From assembly GCF_048403405.1 (NCBI RefSeq), contig NZ_CP183129.1: a DNA stretch of 64,000 bases; one strand, given 5' to 3'. This document shows positions 1,876-18,560 of this stretch, in pieces. A program made the translations under genes and the position numbers. Source of the stretch: Escherichia coli (lineage in GTDB: Bacteria > Pseudomonadota > Gammaproteobacteria > Enterobacterales > Enterobacteriaceae). The notes under the pieces are model-generated. The model had not been told where the DNA came from, made no database searches, and saw only the letters and a program-made list of their open reading frames with translations. How positions within the stretch are numbered: the stretch's first letter is position 1; every line of letters starts with the position of its first letter.

Positions 1876-3006
1876 TCAGGAGAAGTAGTTCAACAAAGTC
1901 GCAATTACCGTACGCTGATTGACGGGCGACAGGTTGTAGAACAGCGGCAGGCGCAGCAGGCGCTCACTCTCTTTGGTGGTGTAGCGATCTTCACCGTGGA
2001 ACTCACCAAAGCGTTCCCCCGCAGGGCAACCGTGCAGCGGAATGTAATGGAACACCGCCATGATTTCCGCTTCTTTCAGAAAGTTAATCAACGCGCTCCG
2101 GTCATCAATATCCCGCAGTTTAATGTAGAACATATGCGCGTTCTGCACGCAGCCATCGGGAATCGACGGCAGCTCGATACGCCCGGCTTTCGCCAGAGGT
2201 GCTAACGCATCGTAGTAGTTTTGCCACAGCGCCAGACGTTGCTGATTGATACGATCTGCTGCTTCCAGTTGCGCCCACAGGTACGCAGCTTGCAGATCGG
2301 ACATCAAATAGCTGGAGCCGATATCGCGCCAGGTATATTTATCGACCTGACCACGGAAGAACTGGCTGCGGTTTGTGCCTTTTTCACGGATGATCTCGGC
2401 TCGTTCGATCAACGCTTTATCGTTAATCAGCGTCGCGCCGCCTTCACCGCCCGCCGTGTAGTTTTTGGTTTCATGGAAGCTAAAGCAGCCAATATGACCA
2501 ATGGTTCCCAGTGCACGCCCTTTGTAAGTGGACATCACGCCCTGAGCAGCATCTTCCACCACAAACAGATTATGCTTTTTCGCCAACGCCATAATGGTGT
2601 CCATTTCGCAGGCCACACCCGCGTAATGGACCGGCACGATAACGCGCGTTTTGTCGGTGATCGCTGCTTCAATCAACGTTTCGTCGATGTTCATGGTGTC
2701 CGGGCGAACATCCACAAAAACGATTTTTGCGCCACGCAGCACAAAGGCATTGGCAGTGGAGACAAAGGTGTAGCTCGGCATGATCACTTCATCGCCAGGC
2801 TGGATATCGAGCAGCAGCGCCGCCATCTCCAGCGAAGCGGTGCAGGACGGCGTCAGTAACACTTTGGCGCTGCCAAAACGTTGCTCCAGCCACTGCTGGC
2901 AGCGACGGGTAAAACCGCCATCGCCACACAGTTTGCCACTACCCATTGCCGACTGCATATAGTCGAGTTCGGTTCCCACCACCGGCGGTGCGTTAAATGG
3001 AATCAT
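1876..3006 (-). CDS. wecE: dTDP-4-keto-6-deoxy-D-glucose aminotransferase WecE
   Basis: 376-aa ORF starting MIPFNAPPVVGTELDYM; DegT/aminotransferase-like; ATG at 3004-3006. Confidence 0.92.
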   Translation of the reverse strand: MIPFNAPPVVGTELDYMQSAMGSGKLCGDGGFTRRCQQWLEQRFGSAKVLLTPSCTASLEMAALLLDIQPGDEVIMPSYTFVSTANAFVLRGAKIVFVDVRPDTMNIDETLIEAAITDKTRVIVPVHYAGVACEMDTIMALAKKHNLFVVEDAAQGVMSTYKGRALGTIGHIGCFSFHETKNYTAGGEGGATLINDKALIERAEIIREKGTNRSQFFRGQVDKYTWRDIGSSYLMSDLQAAYLWAQLEAADRINQQRLALWQNYYDALAPLAKAGRIELPSIPDGCVQNAHMFYIKLRDIDDRSALINFLKEAEIMAVFHYIPLHGCPAGERFGEFHGEDRYTTKESERLLRLPLFYNLSPVNQRTVIATLLNYFS

Positions 3007-3010
3007 GTGA

Positions 3011-3685
3011 TCACCTGTATAACCAGTACGCGGTGCTTTCTACATTCGCACCACTTTGTATGTATCGTTTTAGCGCGGCGGTGTTGCCCATTTGGGTCGC
3101 CACCCGCAAAGTTGTTTTACCGCGAGCATACGCCCAGTTTAGCGCCGTTTGCATCAGCTCAGCACCTGCACCTCGTCCAGCCAGCAGGCCAATTCGCGCA
3201 TCTGTCGCATTGAGTTCCCGTAAAGAGACATAGCCGCGAATATCGCCGGACGCCGCACGTAAAATCAGACATTGATGATCAAAGGTGCCGCGCACGGCAT
3301 TTTCAATCCACTGTGCATAAAAGCGTCCGCTGGCGTCAGGCGCATACCACGGCGCACGAAAACGGCTTTGCGCAAATGCGGCGCTGGCTAACTGACGTAA
3401 TGCGGGAATATCGGTCTCTTGTGCCACTACAGCACCACTATCACTGACATTGTTCACGGGTAGCGCCAAATCAACTTCACCTTCTACCAGGGAGAATCCC
3501 AGCTGTTGCAGGGCATCCAGTTCACCCGTATTTGATGCCGCAATTTTGGCCTGTACCCGTGACCACGGCGCTAAGGCGTCTGACGTCAGGAGCGGTGCTT
3601 CAGGCGTGATGCGCACGATGGCGCTGTTAACACCAAAGAAGGCGTTTTCCCAGGTTAGTGGCTCAATACTGGCGCGGAAGGGCAC
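3011..3685 (-). CDS. wecD: dTDP-fucosamine acetyltransferase WecD
   Basis: 224-aa ORF with GTG start at 3683-3685; C-terminal GNAT-like region; 23-nt overlap with rffH 3' end. Start choice uncertain. Confidence 0.8.
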
Positions 3686-4544
3686 GAAGTAACTCCAGCA
3701 GATATTGGCCGTAGCCAGTTTTCGCCAGCGAGCTGGCGGCGCGCTTCACGCCTTCGTCATCAAGCCAGCCGTTACGCCAGGCGATCTCTTCCAGGCAGGC
3801 AATCTTAAAGCCCTGGCGTTTTTCCACCGTCTGTACAAAGGTGCTGGCTTCAATCAGGCTGTCGTGAGTGCCAGTATCCAGCCAGGCAAATCCGCGCCCG
3901 AGCAGTTCAACGGTCAGGTTGCCCGCCTCGAGGTACATCTGGTTGATGGAGGTAATCTCCAGTTCACCACGCTCCGACGGCTTCACCAGCTTTGCGTACT
4001 CCACGACTTTACTGTCGTAGAAATAAAGCCCGGTCACCGCCCAGTTTGACTTCGGCTGTTTTGGCTTTTCTTCCAGCGAGATAGCGCGGAAATTGTCGTC
4101 AAACTCCACGACGCCAAAGCGTTCCGGATCCATCACCTGATAGCCAAATACCGTCGCGCCTTGCGTGCGCGCCGCAACATGACGCAACTTCGGACTGAAG
4201 CCCTGTCCGAAGAAGATGTTATCGCCCAGCACCAGACAAGAAGGTTCACCGTTGAGGAAGGTTTCACCGATGATAAAGGCCTGCGCCAGACCGTCCGGAC
4301 TGGGCTGTTCGGCATATTCCAGCTGGATACCGAACTCACTACCATCGCCCAGCAGGCGCTGGAAATAACCTTTATCTTCCGGCGTAGTGATGATGAGAAT
4401 TTCGCGGATACCGGCCAGCATCAGCACCGACAGCGGATAGTAAATCATTGGCTTATCGTAAATCGGCAACAGTTGCTTCGATACGCCGCGCGTAATCGGA
4501 TGCAATCGGGTGCCGGAACCGCCCGCCAGGATAATACCTTTCAT
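3663..4544 (-). CDS. rffH: glucose-1-phosphate thymidylyltransferase RffH
   Basis: 293-aa [21 protein letters not shown]... (nucleotidyltransferase G-x-G-T-R motif); ATG at 4542-4544. Confidence 0.93.
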
Positions 4545-4562
4545 GTTTGCCTCCGCTGAAAA

Positions 4563-13773: not shown

Positions 13774-13908
13774 ATAAAAAATGTCATACTCAAAATCATT
13801 CAAACTGTATCAAGATGGCCAGAGAATGAACCCCGATGAGCTTACTGTAGTAAGTGATTCAGGTGAAAGAATGCAGCCAACACAGAGACAGATTGAAGGA
13901 TGAAGAGT

Positions 13909-15393
13909 ATGGGTTCCACCTCGTCGCTGTATGCAGCCATTGATCTCGGTTCGAATAGTTTTCATATGCTGGTTGTGCGCGAGGTGGCTGGAAGCATCCA
14001 GACGCTGACGCGAATTAAACGCAAAGTGCGTCTGGCTGCTGGCCTGAATAGCGAAAATGCCCTCTCTAATGAAGCAATGGAGCGCGGTTGGCAATGTCTG
14101 CGCCTGTTTGCTGAACGTCTGCAAGATATCCCTCCCTCGCAAATTCGCGTTGTCGCTACGGCGACATTACGACTTGCCGTCAATGCGGGTGATTTTATTG
14201 CCAAAGCACAGGAAATCCTCGGTTGTCCGGTACAGGTGATCAGCGGTGAAGAGGAAGCACGTCTGATTTATCAGGGCGTTGCTCACACAACTGGCGGTGC
14301 CGATCAGCGCCTGGTGGTGGATATAGGCGGTGCCAGTACTGAACTGGTAACCGGCACGGGTGCACAAACCACCTCGTTGTTCAGCCTGTCGATGGGCTGT
14401 GTCACCTGGCTGGAACGCTATTTTGCCGATCGTAATCTGGGGCAGGAAAATTTTGATGCTGCAGAAAAAGCGGCACGCGAAGTGTTACGTCCGGTTGCCG
14501 ATGAATTACGGTATCACGGCTGGAAAGTGTGCGTTGGCGCTTCCGGCACCGTGCAGGCGTTACAGGAAATCATGATGGCACAGGGGATGGATGAACGCAT
14601 TACCCTGGAAAAGTTGCAGCAACTGAAACAGCGAGCCATTCATTGCGGTCGGCTGGAGGAACTGGAGATTGACGGGCTGACGCTGGAACGTGCGTTAGTG
14701 TTCCCGAGTGGTCTGGCAATCCTGATAGCCATTTTTACCGAACTGAATATTCAGTGTATGACCCTGGCGGGTGGTGCGCTGCGTGAAGGCCTGGTCTACG
14801 GCATGTTGCATCTGACCGTCGAGCAGGATATTCGCAGCCGTACGCTGCGTAATATTCAGCGCCGCTTTATGATCGATATTGATCAGGCACAGCGCGTAGC
14901 CAAAGTTGCGGCTAACTTCTTCGATCAGGTGAAAAACGAATGGCATCTTGAAGCAATAAGCCGCGATTTGCTCATCAGCGCCTGCCAGCTTCATGAAATC
15001 GGCCTGAGCGTTGACTTCAAACAAGCGCCGCAACACGCTGCTTATCTGGTACGTAATCTGGATCTTCCCGGTTTTACCCCCGCACAGAAAAAACTGCTGG
15101 CGACGCTACTGCTCAACCAGACGAATCCGGTCGATCTCTCATCGCTGCATCAGCAAAATGCCGTACCGCCGCGCGTCGCAGAACAACTCTGCCGCTTACT
15201 TCGCCTGGCCATCATTTTTGCCAGCCGTCGCCGTGACGATCTCGTGCCAGAGATGACATTACAGGCTAACCATGAACTGTTGACCTTGACGCTTCCGCAA
15301 GGTTGGCTAACCCAACATCCGCTCGGTAAAGAGATTATTGCTCAGGAAAGCCAGTGGCAGAGCTATGTCCACTGGCCGCTGGAAGTGCATTAA
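13909..15393 (+). CDS. gppA: guanosine pentaphosphate phosphohydrolase GppA
   Basis: 494 aa from ATG 13909 ([23 protein letters not shown]...); Ppx/GppA fold; an in-frame ATG at 13900 is an alternative start. Confidence 0.94.
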
Positions 15394-15439: not shown

Positions 15440-17461
15440 TTATTTCCCTCGTTTTGCCGCCATCATCGCTTTCAGATTCGCCAGATGGCTTTGCCCTTTC
15501 TGCATCCGTTCTTCGGCGCTGACCACTTTGCGCTCCTGTTCCCAAATCAGATCATCCTGCGGCAGCTCCAGCAAAAAGCGGCTCGGCTCCGGGCGCACCA
15601 GTTCGCCGTACTGACGGCGTTCTTTACACAGCGTAAAGGTCAATTCCTTCTGGGCGCGGGTAATGCCGACATAGGCCAGCCGCCGCTCCTCATCGATATT
15701 ATCTTCATCGATACTGCTCTGGTGCGGCAAAAACCCTTCTTCCATACCGACCATGTAGACATAAGGAAACTCCAGCCCTTTCGACGCGTGCAGAGTCATC
15801 AGTTGTACCTGATCTAACTCTTCATCACTCTCGCCGCGCTCCATCATGTCGCGCAGAGTAAAGCGCGTCACCACCTGGGTGAGCGTCATCGGCTCATCCA
15901 GTTCGCTACCTTCCAGCATCTCCGTCATCCAGCTAAACAGTTGGTTGACGTTCTTCATGCGCATTTCGGCGGCTTTCGGGCTGGGCGATGTTTCGTACAG
16001 CCAGGATTCATAATCCATGCCGTGGATCAGATCGCGTACCGCGGCAATCGGCTCCCGCTCCGCCAGACGCTGGATTTCTGCCAACCAATGAGTGAAGCGG
16101 GTCAATGCTTCATAACCACGTCCGCTAAGCGTCTGACTCAGGCCCATATCAAAGCTGGCGGTAAACATGCTTTTATTGCGCGTCATCGCCCACTCACCCA
16201 GCTTTTTCAGCGTAGCCGGGCCAATCTCTCGCTTCGGCGTGTTAACAATACGCAGAAATGCGCTGTCATCGTCCGGGTTAGTCAGCACGCGCAGATAAGC
16301 CAGCAAATCCTTGATTTCAGGACGAGAGAAAAACGACGTACCACCAGAAATTTTGTACGGGATGCGGTTTTGCATCAGGAATTTTTCAAACACCCGCGAC
16401 TGATGGTTACCGCGATAAAGAATGGCGTAATCTTTGTACTGCGTTTTATTGACGAAGTGATGCGCGATCAGCTCGCCAGTAACGCGCTCGGCTTCATGTT
16501 CCTCGTTATTCGCGCTTAAAACTTTTAGCTCTGTGCCGTAGCCCAGTTCGGAGAACAGACGCTTTTCAAAGACGTGCGGGTTATTGGCAATGAGGATGTT
16601 CGCCGCTTTCAGAATACGTCCGGAAGAGCGGTAGTTCTGCTCAAGCTTAATCACCTTCAGTGCCGGGAAATCCTGACTCAGCAGCACCAGGTTTTGCGGA
16701 CGTGCACCGCGCCAGGAGTAGATCGACTGGTCGTCATCGCCAACTACGGTAAAGCGCGCGCGGCTGCCCACCAGCAGTTTCACCAGTTCATACTGGCTGG
16801 TGTTGGTGTCCTGATACTCATCCACCAGCAGGTAGCGAATTTTGTTCTGCCAGCGCTCGCGGACTTCTTCATTGCGTTGCAGCAGTAACGTCGGCAATAA
16901 AATCAGATCATCGAAGTCGAGCACATTACAGGCTTTCAGGTGTGCATCATACAGCCCATAACAATGGGCAAAAATACGGTCCCGCTCGCCAATCGCACTG
17001 GCTGCCGCCTGGGACGGTGTTTTGAGATCGTTCTTCCAGTTAGAGATGGTCGAAATCAGCTGTTGCAGGAGGACTTTGTCATCTTCAATCAGCCCCTCGG
17101 TCAGCTCTTTAAGCAACGCCAGCTGATCGGTGTCATCAAACAGCGAAAAGTTCGCTTTCATCCCCAACGCCGCATACTCACGCTTGATGATATCCAGCCC
17201 CAGCGTGTGGAAGGTGGAAATCATCAGCCCGCGCGCCTCTTTGCGCCCCAGCGTCTGCCCGACACGCTCTTTCATCTCGCGCGCCGCCTTATTGGTAAAG
17301 GTCACCGCCGCGATATGTCGCGCCTGATAACCGCAACCGCGGATCAGATGGGCGATTTTATTGGTGATGACACGAGTTTTACCGGAACCCGCGCCTGCCA
17401 GCACCAGGCAGGGGCCGGTAACGAATTCGACAGCTTGTTGTTGGCCGGGGTTTAGACGCAT
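15440..17461 (-). CDS. rep: ATP-dependent DNA helicase Rep
   Basis: 673 aa from ATG at 17459-17461 ([31 protein letters not shown]...); UvrD/Rep SF1 motifs; track ORF has a 17-codon extension. Confidence 0.96.
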
Positions 17462-17677
17462 AGGTGTATTGCTCAATCTTCGAACGGGGGGAGGATTGTA
17501 GCAGAATCGCATTTGAATGTGACCGAGTGAAAACCGCTAACCGGATGGCTGCGGATGTTTAAATCAGAGAGGGAAGGCCGAAACCGGAGTTCATCATGAA
17601 TCCATTAGACTTAGAAAATATCGGGTCGTAACGTTGTGTTATTACTTTTTCAGAGTTTACTAAGGAGAGGTTTACTC

Positions 17678-18127
17678 GTGGCGATTAATTTCAGCCCCAA
17701 GGTTGGTGAAATACTGGAATGCAACTTTGGTAACTATCCTGTTAGCCAGAATGGACAGTTCAGCACGACGTATTACGATGGCCGCATTCCACCTGAGATG
17801 ATAAAAAATAGGTTGGTTGTCGTGCTCAACGGAAAAATTAATGGCAACGCATGTATCGTCGTTCCATTATCAACCACTCGCGACCATGACAAGTTAAATC
17901 GTGGAATGCATGTTGAAATAGCCAGTAATGTTATCAATGACATGCATTTCTTTGATCAGCAGATACGTTGGGCTAAAGCCGACCTGGTACAACAAGTCAG
18001 TCGAAACCGATTAAACAGAGCAAGGACTTATCGGGGGTATCTTAATCAATGTTTGCCACATGAGTTGGTTGCAGACATACAGAGGGCAGTCATCAAGTCA
18101 ATCAATGCCATATCGCTCATAAATTGA
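17678..18127 (+). CDS. yifN: PemK/MazF-like toxin-family protein (yifN-like), intact
   Basis: ORF-track frame 17636-18127; best start is GTG 17678 preceded by SD taaggagagg (17661-17670); sequence VAINFSPKVGEILECNF...RLVVVLNG...CIVVPLSTT resembles the PemK/MazF fold pattern; visibly A+T-rich relative to flanks. Confidence 0.6.
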   Translation: MAINFSPKVGEILECNFGNYPVSQNGQFSTTYYDGRIPPEMIKNRLVVVLNGKINGNACIVVPLSTTRDHDKLNRGMHVEIASNVINDMHFFDQQIRWAKADLVQQVSRNRLNRARTYRGYLNQCLPHELVADIQRAVIKSINAISLIN

Positions 18128-18254
18128 CAATAAAATCACCATCCCCGATAATGACTCTGTAGCCCATAGAGGCCCTAAGTTTTCTCCCCTTGAGGGACCT
18201 GCGAAGCCCGGATTTTCCGGGCTTTTGCCATATATGTCCCCCCTCCCTGACTGA

Positions 18255-18560
<306 letters not shown>

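Follow-up and report, generated by a model that had tools for sequence, protein, structure and literature searches.

The window analysed here is a stretch of 64,000 nt from Escherichia coli (assembly GCF_048403405.1, contig NZ_CP183129.1). Between rep and ppiC it carries yifN, which encodes a protein of the PemK/MazF toxin family, and downstream of yifN it carries a gene for a small non-coding RNA (sRNA); together, the two genes may form a type III-like toxin-antitoxin module. Table 1 lists the features of the locus. Positions 17400-18300 are 100% identical to the corresponding region of E. coli strain TUM14771, in which the Prokaryotic Genome Annotation Pipeline (PGAP) labels the same 149-codon, GTG-initiated gene as "type II toxin-antitoxin system PemK/MazF family toxin". 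The first-pass annotation of this DNA had likewise proposed a 149-codon open reading frame (ORF) starting with the GTG at 17678 behind a Shine-Dalgarno sequence, and this stands on the evidence of the sequence, the ORF list and the start codon assigned by PGAP in the identical genome (WP_000996699.1). Ribo-RET revealed yifN initiation signals at the annotated start and at an upstream in-frame start (bioRxiv 10.1101/520783); we take the latter to be the upstream GTG of Table 1.

Table 1. Features of the yifN-sRNA locus and its surroundings (positions in the window).
Feature	Position	Strand	Basis
sRNA gene ecr3777(d+), ~75 nt; 3' end about 18229-18237	18159-18231	+	Published RNA, covariance models
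sRNA promoter: -35 box TTGACA (18124-18129), 17-nt spacer, -10 box GATAAT (18147-18152)	18124-18152	+	Consensus scan, 11/12
Hairpin 1 of the sRNA, GCC[CAUAGA]GGC	18162-18173	+	RNAalifold; 99.1% paired, 39 sequences
Hairpin 2 of the sRNA, UCCC[CUUGA]GGGA	18185-18197	+	Present in 39/39 sRNAs
Intrinsic terminator, GCGAAGCCCGG-AUUUU-CCGGGCUUUUGC	18201-18228	+	99% paired, six pairs with compensatory changes
yifN coding sequence, intact, GTG start, 149 aa, PemK/MazF fold	17678-18127	+	ORF list, Pfam, structure model
yifN Shine-Dalgarno sequence, AAGGAGAGG	17662-17670	+	Read from the sequence
Upstream in-frame GTG, would yield a 163-aa isoform	17636-17638	+	ORF list
T deleted in K-12, B and HS30-1; frameshift after codon 69	17887	+	Alignments
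11-codon mini-ORF, not counted in the module	17596-17631	+	Similarity confined to Superficieibacter
yifN-sRNA insert, ~790 bp, relative to E. coli genomes without it	17478-18266		Alignment with strain uk_P46212
gppA	13900-15393	+	ORF list and PGAP annotation of the matching genome
rep	15440-17461	-	ORF list and PGAP annotation of the matching genome
ppiC (followed by ilvC and ilvY)	18279-18560	+	ORF list and PGAP annotation of the matching genome

The sRNA gene begins 32 nt past the stop codon of yifN, beyond the part of the DNA to which the first-pass annotation referred. Its K-12 counterpart has been described: Romero et al. (2014) reported a 79-nt sRNA, ecr3777(d+), at U00096.2 3957925-3958004 on the basis of RNA-seq and northern blotting, and placed it between ppiC and yifN on the yifN strand, with a mapped transcription start and with its function unassigned (PMC4681348). 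Conway et al. (2014) detected it as well. The published interval translates to about 18158-18237 of the window and coincides exactly with the transcript predicted here. Two covariance models of the sRNA, R1 and R2, score the window copy at 81.7 and 79.8 bits, respectively, and its fold has a z-score of -2.65. Scanning positions 17300-18400 with cmscan against Rfam 15 (E up to 1) gave no family match to the sRNA; the two matches obtained in this interval, both viral elements and both within the ORF, occurred by chance.

Transcription of the sRNA appears to start from a promoter of its own, and the stop codon of yifN (TGA, 18125-18127) sits inside the -35 box TTGACA of this promoter. All 36 aligned sRNA genes display a sigma-70-type promoter with 7-11 of 12 consensus matches and a spacing of mostly 17 nt, and in these 36 copies the -10 box ends 5-9 nt (mostly 7-8) ahead of the conserved 5' end G(U/A)(A/U)GCCC. 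In 13 or more lineages, transcription starts 32-33 nt after the stop codon, which places the toxin's TGA within TTGACA. Upstream of yifN itself, the promoter scan found no promoter-like site. The sRNA gene usually lies on the same strand directly 3' of yifN; Shewanella has it in convergent orientation to yifN, and Massilia and Herbaspirillum have it about 0.8 kb upstream, pointing away from yifN. Because of these convergent, divergent and distant placements, the sRNA is an independent gene and not merely the 3' untranslated region (UTR) of yifN. The Herbaspirillum locus L036 harbors two tandem sRNA copies (2973-3063 and 3130-3222), each with its own promoter, which lie about 0.8-1 kb upstream of yifN in divergent orientation; the DNA between them and yifN contains a 176-aa ORF of unknown family.

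Regarding its structure, the sRNA consists of short GC-rich hairpins followed by an intrinsic terminator. Hairpin 1 is present in 39 of 39 sRNAs, and its stem shows GC to CG as well as CG to GC swaps; the stem of hairpin 2 occurs as UCCC/GGGA, UUCC/GGAA, GUCC/GGAC, GCC/GGC and CCC/GGG. Across the sRNAs, whole stems are exchanged (GCC/GGC, GGC/GCC, CCC/GGG, UCC/GGA, CGG/CCG). For the two-hairpin model, 94.4% of the cells in the 39-sequence alignment are paired and 10 pairs are changed on both sides, counts that lean towards the model since the alignment was fitted to it. None of 500 shuffles reached any of its five measures, the paired fraction fell to 27-63% in slid controls, and the scores of divergent members rose by 8-21 bits. 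A long-range helix P1 (GGCCC with GGG-A-CC) and an alternative P1' had been considered, reached 81-84% pairing with one covarying pair, and were replaced by this model. Independent support for the hairpins comes from the Pasteurellaceae, which lay outside model building: their sRNAs (L055 1945-2050, L056 1945-2050 and L040 about 4440-4560) contain exact direct repeats CGG[CAUAGA or CUUAGA]CCG, whose stems differ from those of E. coli by a swap at every position and whose loop is retained, and they possess a TATAAT box and a terminator. Both covariance models miss these sRNAs, so that model-based surveys undercount the family. Most sRNAs carry two hairpin units, those of L030 and L032 carry three, and direct sequence repeats are clear in L055, L056, L058, L059 and L040. 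The two units of the E. coli sRNA have diverged from each other, forming an array far shorter than ToxI. No other terminator is found in the sequence between the yifN stop codon and the hairpin at 18201-18228, and this terminator probably also ends yifN read-through transcripts.

The association of this sRNA with yifN is the central observation of our analysis. A sequence profile of the sRNA matched beside yifN in 33 other loci and nowhere else in about 385 kb. With the covariance models, every one of the 36 genomic loci whose yifN is complete or almost complete (L004-L039) proved to contain it, as did the window and six yifN plasmids (pCAR1, E. coli IncX1/F, Klebsiella, P. syringae, Drgb7 and V. 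vulnificus). No match was obtained at the E. coli site that lacks the insert, in five loci holding just short pieces of yifN, or beside two outgroup PemK genes. For Haemophilus, Actinobacillus and Glaesserella, the sRNA beside yifN was missed by the models and recognised by eye. Altogether, the sRNA accompanies yifN in about 45 of 45 examined loci of the yifN clade, with hosts in the Enterobacterales, Pseudomonas, Pasteurellaceae, Legionellaceae, Xanthomonas and Burkholderiales and on plasmids such as pCAR1, and not one intact yifN without the sRNA was seen among them. As in type III systems, a conserved non-coding RNA gene thus lies beside the toxin gene, and the term "orphan", which the first-pass annotation had applied to yifN, is not supported. 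The sRNA was found in 4015 of 5426 complete E. coli genomes, a number similar to that of the genomes with at least 80% of the yifN region (3982). A pCAR1-type sRNA was found on 24 plasmids in PLSDB (18 of Pseudomonas, 5 of Escherichia and 1 of Pantoea), the counts equal those of plasmids with YifN matches in the same three genera, and wherever both coordinates are listed, the sRNA lies about 60 nt downstream of yifN.

The same association emerged when the sRNA served as the starting point. A metagenome scan using a pattern from the sRNA alone yielded 42 contigs, 33 of which carry yifN immediately upstream in the same orientation. The other nine, representing six distinct types (L070, L072, L073, L075 with L094 and L103 of the same type, L083 with L096 of the same type, and L100), contain a complete sRNA gene and no yifN within 2.5 kb. 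These yifN-less copies retain promoter, two hairpins and terminator; the contigs are plasmid-like or resemble integrative and conjugative elements (ICEs), encode a ParA-like ATPase and a relaxase-like protein, and show a neighbouring gene pair that by eye resembles DUF4160/DUF2442. Their RNAs could act as orphan antitoxins, counter addiction, or fulfil a separate function. On one metagenome contig, L066, a C-terminal yifN fragment (43-153) is located 2.2 kb upstream of an intact sRNA gene (2336-2373), which suggests an insertion or rearrangement between the two. The sRNA is also retained next to frameshifted yifN genes in K-12-type strains, L018 and L039. This asymmetry, with the RNA alone or beside a dead toxin gene and never the reverse, is a prediction of toxin-antitoxin biology, though an RNA with its own function could also yield it.

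Both partners are under purifying selection. Between E. coli and Superficieibacter, nucleotide identity amounts to about 97% for the sRNA, 79% for yifN and 85% for ppiC, and within E. coli 3995 of 4055 records show an sRNA identity of at least 99%, though the synonymous divergence (dS) of yifN reaches 0.15-0.18. For yifN, the ratio of nonsynonymous to synonymous divergence (dN/dS) is 0.03-0.27 within E. coli and between genera, and the intact YifN is accordingly a selected protein.

A protein antitoxin, the usual partner of MazF-like toxins, was sought in 42 yifN loci fetched with one genome per species, 37 of which have a substantial yifN. An all-against-all BLAST of 1422 flanking ORFs (at least 40 aa) from these 37 loci revealed no flanking family that recurs across loci from other genera; the only recurring families were yifN itself and opposite-strand shadow ORFs overlapping it, and the same-strand upstream ORFs of individual loci are mutually unrelated. 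The earlier statement that no protein antitoxin is recognisable is therefore confirmed on a broader basis, and the main clade of yifN has no adjacent co-transcribed antitoxin gene of the kind that defines type II systems. The only upstream ORF that had been pointed out, the mini-ORF of 11 codons, has no equivalent in other yifN loci. The 200 bp upstream of yifN, this mini-ORF included, are detectably similar only in Superficieibacter electus (L004); as its region is conserved in that genus alone, we rejected the mini-ORF as an antitoxin, and it is not a credible candidate.

Two plasmid loci differ from this picture. L058 (plasmid Drgb7) and L059 (a V. vulnificus plasmid) are the most divergent sRNA-bearing loci, with 32-36% identity, and in each a small ORF (1210-1476, 88 aa, in L058; 1287-1478, 63 aa, in L059) abuts or overlaps the toxin start on its upstream side. 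These ORFs have no significant family match and display faint hints of a ribbon-helix-helix (RHH) type, RelB or DUF6290; the sRNA repeats of both loci carry GNRA tetraloops. Such loci may be a three-component or transitional form. Fluviibacter L061 (30% identity, an upstream 126-aa ORF and no recognisable sRNA) was treated as an outgroup, and the only PemK genes that turned up in phage genomes, distant Vibrio ones with 27% identity and a LexA-like gene upstream, were not counted as family members. One of these is the distant PemK-like gene at the genome end of Vibrio phage 10N.239.311.D05_PE001 (L048, 3001-3420), which lacks the sRNA; it is preceded by a LexA/signal-peptidase-like gene, and the genomes concerned are those of small Vinavirales (class Tectiliviricetes) Vibrio phages.

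The assignment of YifN to the PemK/MazF fold, made in the first-pass annotation by residue pattern, proved correct. PF02452.23 (PemK_toxin) matches residues 37-141 of YifN with E=2.5e-10 and 40.9 bits, covering model positions 14-108 of 109. An AlphaFold2 model built with 35 homologues reached a predicted local distance difference test score (pLDDT) of 78.6 and a predicted template modelling score (pTM) of 0.73. Searching the PDB with this model in Foldseek, the top 50 matches were all MazF structures, representing M. tuberculosis, S. aureus, B. subtilis, B. cereus, B. anthracis and E. coli; their probability was 1.0, their target-normalised template modelling scores (TM-scores) were mostly 0.62-0.78, and their sequence identity was just 8-19%. 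The model thus possesses the SH3-like barrel of MazF/Kid. NCBIfam and PADLOC scans of YifN gave no match, PADLOC containing no model for such a system, and phmmer against PDB sequences returned one chance match and nothing else. A homologue search gathered 147 proteins from Enterobacterales, Pseudomonas, Aeromonas, Shewanella and Burkholderiales, some of them named "uncharacterized protein YifN (PemK superfamily)" by the Joint Genome Institute (JGI); a precomputed PF02452 match exists for most of the homologues listed, and some truncated fragments have none.

Aligning 35 diverse family members revealed 18 invariant positions, among them E40, R45, P63 and S65. In hhalign these residues fall on E24, R29, P50 and T52 of MazF, an alignment of a profile with a single sequence, the low probability of which makes it supportive and not a proof. 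The catalytic Arg (R29, corresponding to R45) and Thr/Ser (T52, corresponding to S65) of MazF would hence seem to be kept in YifN, and the intact protein is probably catalytically competent.

The locus as a whole is an insert that is missing from about 26% of complete E. coli genomes. In strain uk_P46212 (ST131-like) all of it is absent, leaving a rep-ppiC spacer of about 86 bp, and the 901-bp stretch (at least 80% of its length) is found in 3982 of 5426 complete E. coli genomes. The higher A+T content that had been noted by eye for yifN is real, with a GC content of 0.429 (0.453 at third codon positions, GC3) compared with 0.539 (0.647) for rep and 0.504 (0.543) for ppiC, within an insert of about 790 bp. 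An origin as an old horizontally acquired island is plausible, since Superficieibacter shares the rep-yifN-sRNA-ppiC synteny and homologous modules occur on many plasmids. Compared with K-12 and most E. coli, a 47-bp segment of the sRNA-ppiC spacer is missing from the window at about 18243/18244; the matching stretch spans 947-948 bp in K-12 and most E. coli genomes and 901 bp in the window.

The yifN of K-12 (b3777) is annotated as a pseudogene, and the first-pass annotation rightly contrasted it with the full-length copy of the window: alignment located the lesion as a one-base deletion at the position corresponding to 17887, where one T is lost in codon 70 (CCATGAC to CCAGAC). An exact 61-mer of this frameshift allele is present in 1224 of 5426 complete E. 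coli genomes (~23%), and intact alleles occur in EDL933 and three other sampled strains. Synonymous divergence between the window allele and other E. coli alleles (L049, L051 and L052) is 0.15-0.18, which seems high for a comparison within a species, while the sRNA beside yifN is identical in all four, a pattern pointing to allelic exchange or to a long-standing polymorphism. The yifN-sRNA module occurs in about three in four complete E. coli genomes and is intact in roughly half, and the species offers natural controls in the form of intact alleles (EDL933), the K-12 frameshift and island-less B2 strains.

Outside chromosomes, YifN homologues were found on 134 PLSDB plasmids, 59 of which are conjugative. 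Among them are the IncP-7 plasmids pCAR1 and pND6-1, a plasmid of P. savastanoi 1448A, P. aeruginosa megaplasmids, many pig-associated E. coli plasmids, and Pasteurellaceae plasmids of 6 kb on which just 5-7 features are annotated. Some plasmid copies of yifN adjoin ParA or segregation genes, and the distribution fits a role in plasmid or island stabilisation. The presence of the module on catabolic plasmids, megaplasmids and small Pasteurellaceae resistance plasmids means that it may matter for plasmid persistence.

We regard it as an evenly balanced proposition that yifN and the sRNA gene constitute a type III-like toxin-antitoxin module consisting of a MazF-family RNase and an RNA antitoxin. 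Here, the two genes would form one mobile unit, with YifN acting as an endoribonuclease of the MazF/PemK fold and the sRNA being supplied in excess from its own strong constitutive promoter. Presenting two, rarely three, tandem short GC hairpins before its terminator, the sRNA would bind the YifN dimer and keep the RNase inactive; the tandem units suggest that one hairpin may be engaged per protomer. Loss of the module or shut-off of its transcription would free the more stable protein and thereby cause addiction to the plasmid or island, and abortive-infection defence is a possible further role. The overlap of the sRNA promoter with the toxin stop codon could couple the two genes, as deletions removing the RNA would tend to truncate the toxin gene, too. 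Among the three options that the first-pass annotation had offered, neutralisation by a non-canonical partner fits best, and those of a protein that is not a toxin or has been domesticated are less probable.

The fold, the conserved catalytic residues, the purifying selection, the linkage, the promoter and the hairpin architecture on which this interpretation builds are established by the analyses above, and several points weigh against it. We infer the toxicity and RNase activity of YifN, the direct binding of the sRNA to it, and the neutralisation. The arrangement, with a downstream RNA, a separate promoter, two short units and another toxin family, is unlike that of all known type III systems. 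On nine of the 42 metagenome contigs a complete sRNA gene has no yifN nearby, and the RNA may thus have a function of its own. The loops vary, with UUCG or GNRA tetraloops in some lineages, so that no common recognition element emerges. Finally, the small ORFs of L058 and L059 could be a protein antitoxin, with a different role for the sRNA there.

The main rival explanation reverses the roles of the two genes: the sRNA would be the primary actor, for example a regulatory RNA of mobile elements, and YifN a non-toxic, dedicated RNase for its processing or turnover, or a binding protein. We consider this unlikely. In its favour, the sRNA occurs without yifN in plasmid- and ICE-like contexts in the metagenome set, is nearly invariant in about 1200 E. 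coli genomes with a frameshifted yifN, and has a U-rich linker and terminator tail like those of trans-acting sRNAs. Toxin-less antitoxins, and antitoxins outliving a decayed toxin, are however also expected of toxin-antitoxin systems, the MazF catalytic residues are kept in YifN, very small plasmids and partition-gene neighbours fit a stabilisation module, and no target of the sRNA is known. Quite improbable, in our view, is a type I-like control, in which the sRNA, or the same sequence in the yifN 3' UTR, pairs with the ribosome-binding region of yifN (UCUCCCCUU with AAGGAGAGG) and blocks translation with no protein binding involved. The 5' strand of hairpin 2 does look like an anti-Shine-Dalgarno sequence, with near-complete complementarity to the Shine-Dalgarno sequence of E. 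coli yifN, and read-through yifN mRNA should hold the sRNA sequence in cis because no terminator intervenes. Yet cognate duplexes (-19.2 kcal/mol) are no better than non-cognate ones (-19.6 kcal/mol), 42% of shuffles equal them, the complementary segment is locked in the covarying stem of hairpin 2, and the Pasteurellaceae hairpins (CGG...CCG) lack any anti-Shine-Dalgarno character. Type I systems combine antisense pairing to the toxin mRNA with a small hydrophobic toxin, neither of which was found here, YifN being a soluble 149-aa protein of the MazF fold.

That YifN has become a domesticated, catalytically harmless housekeeping protein of the MazF fold, with its chromosomal copy decaying, strikes us as very unlikely. 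About 23% of E. coli genomes are frameshifted and about 26% island-less with no obvious consequence, and the lack of NCBIfam and PADLOC matches would agree with this idea; against it speak the strong purifying selection where the gene is intact (dN/dS 0.03-0.27), the invariance of the catalytic residues, and a patchy, plasmid-rich distribution, which selfish modules typically show and housekeeping genes do not. We give the least credence to a true orphan toxin, tolerated through low expression or through an unlinked antitoxin such as a cross-reacting MazE or ChpS, with the sRNA as a mere terminator or 3'-end element. No adjacent protein antitoxin and no promoter-like site upstream of yifN were detected, and genome surveys commonly encounter solo toxin homologues (PMC2701414). 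A mere terminator, however, would keep neither a conserved promoter nor a pair of covarying hairpins, would not stay about 97% identical between genera, and would not persist in convergent or distant positions; moreover, hosts ranging from Legionellaceae to Xanthomonas and Burkholderiales, together with broad-host plasmids, make a fixed unlinked antitoxin unlikely.

A bolder extension of the type III-like reading, and one we hold to be very doubtful, is that YifN and the sRNA represent a new class of RNA antitoxins for MazF-family toxins, in which the hairpins are decoys of the toxin's RNA target, the toxin would be a hairpin-specific rRNA nuclease, and orphan sRNAs on other mobile elements would serve as anti-addiction immunity genes. 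One candidate target is the apex of helix 26 of 16S rRNA (nt 838-848), which in the 16S rRNA gene of the window (36897-35356, minus strand) lies at 36060-36050 and reads GCC[CUUGA]GGC. The same 11-mer forms hairpin 1 in the Pseudomonas/pCAR1 sRNA and hairpin 2 in the Roseateles sRNA, and in E. coli the CUUGA loop recurs in hairpin 2, there with a stem of CCC/GGG. This match was noticed post hoc, with a rough chance estimate of about 0.02, and the looser motif is not enriched in the window; the likeness could reflect target mimicry or coincidence and is put forward as an idea, not as evidence.

Within the incomplete coverage of our literature search, there was no functional study of yifN, no description of an RNA antitoxin for it, and no mention of a link between ecr3777(d+) and yifN, of the tandem hairpins or of the wide distribution; the K-12 RNA, which is the same as the sRNA of the window, was published solely as a new, uncharacterised sRNA (PMC4681348). 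MazF and PemK are textbook type II toxins, and automated annotation tags every YifN homologue as a type II PemK/MazF toxin although none has a protein antitoxin. If our interpretation holds, at least one family among the many "solo toxins" of genome surveys would be explained, and an orphan E. coli sRNA known since 2014 would gain a function.

With the type II systems MazEF, PemIK (Kid/Kis) and ChpBIK, YifN shares fold and family, the positions of the catalytic Arg and Thr/Ser, the PxS/T and DxVxxV motifs, and the occurrence on plasmids. In contrast to these systems, which have an upstream antitoxin of the AbrB or RHH type, no locus of the yifN main clade contains one. YifN also differs from MazF in a beta1-beta2 loop that is about 15 residues longer and bears the invariant motif PPEM(I/V)KNR, and in a long C-terminal helix. 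MazF-mx of Myxococcus xanthus is, like YifN, a MazF homologue with no adjacent mazE (PMC2701414). Unlike yifN, its gene is not known to have a conserved RNA gene beside it. Its activity is reportedly controlled by an unlinked protein.

The known type III systems (ToxIN, CptIN and TenpIN, as well as AvcID) resemble yifN-sRNA in combining a protein toxin with an adjacent, independently abundant non-coding RNA, to some extent in the tandem units of this RNA (two to three hairpin units in the yifN sRNA), and in their horizontal mobility on plasmids and chromosomes. ToxN itself has a Kid/MazF-like fold. As AvcI shows, a type III antitoxin is not necessarily a long repeat array (PMC10511110). Gene order, promoter arrangement and toxin family are different: in type III systems, the RNA lies upstream and shares a promoter with the toxin gene across an intervening terminator, whereas the yifN sRNA lies downstream with its own sigma-70 promoter overlapping the toxin stop codon. 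Type III toxins belong to ToxN/AbiQ, CptN or TenpN, while YifN matches PF02452 only and its structural matches are MazF and not ToxN. Moreover, type III repeats of 34-36 nt form pseudoknots, while the hairpins of the yifN sRNA measure about 12-13 nt and are about 25 nt apart. Should a MazF-family protein indeed be held in check by this sRNA, a well-studied toxin fold would have moved from a protein to an RNA antidote, and the boundary between type II and type III systems would be blurred.

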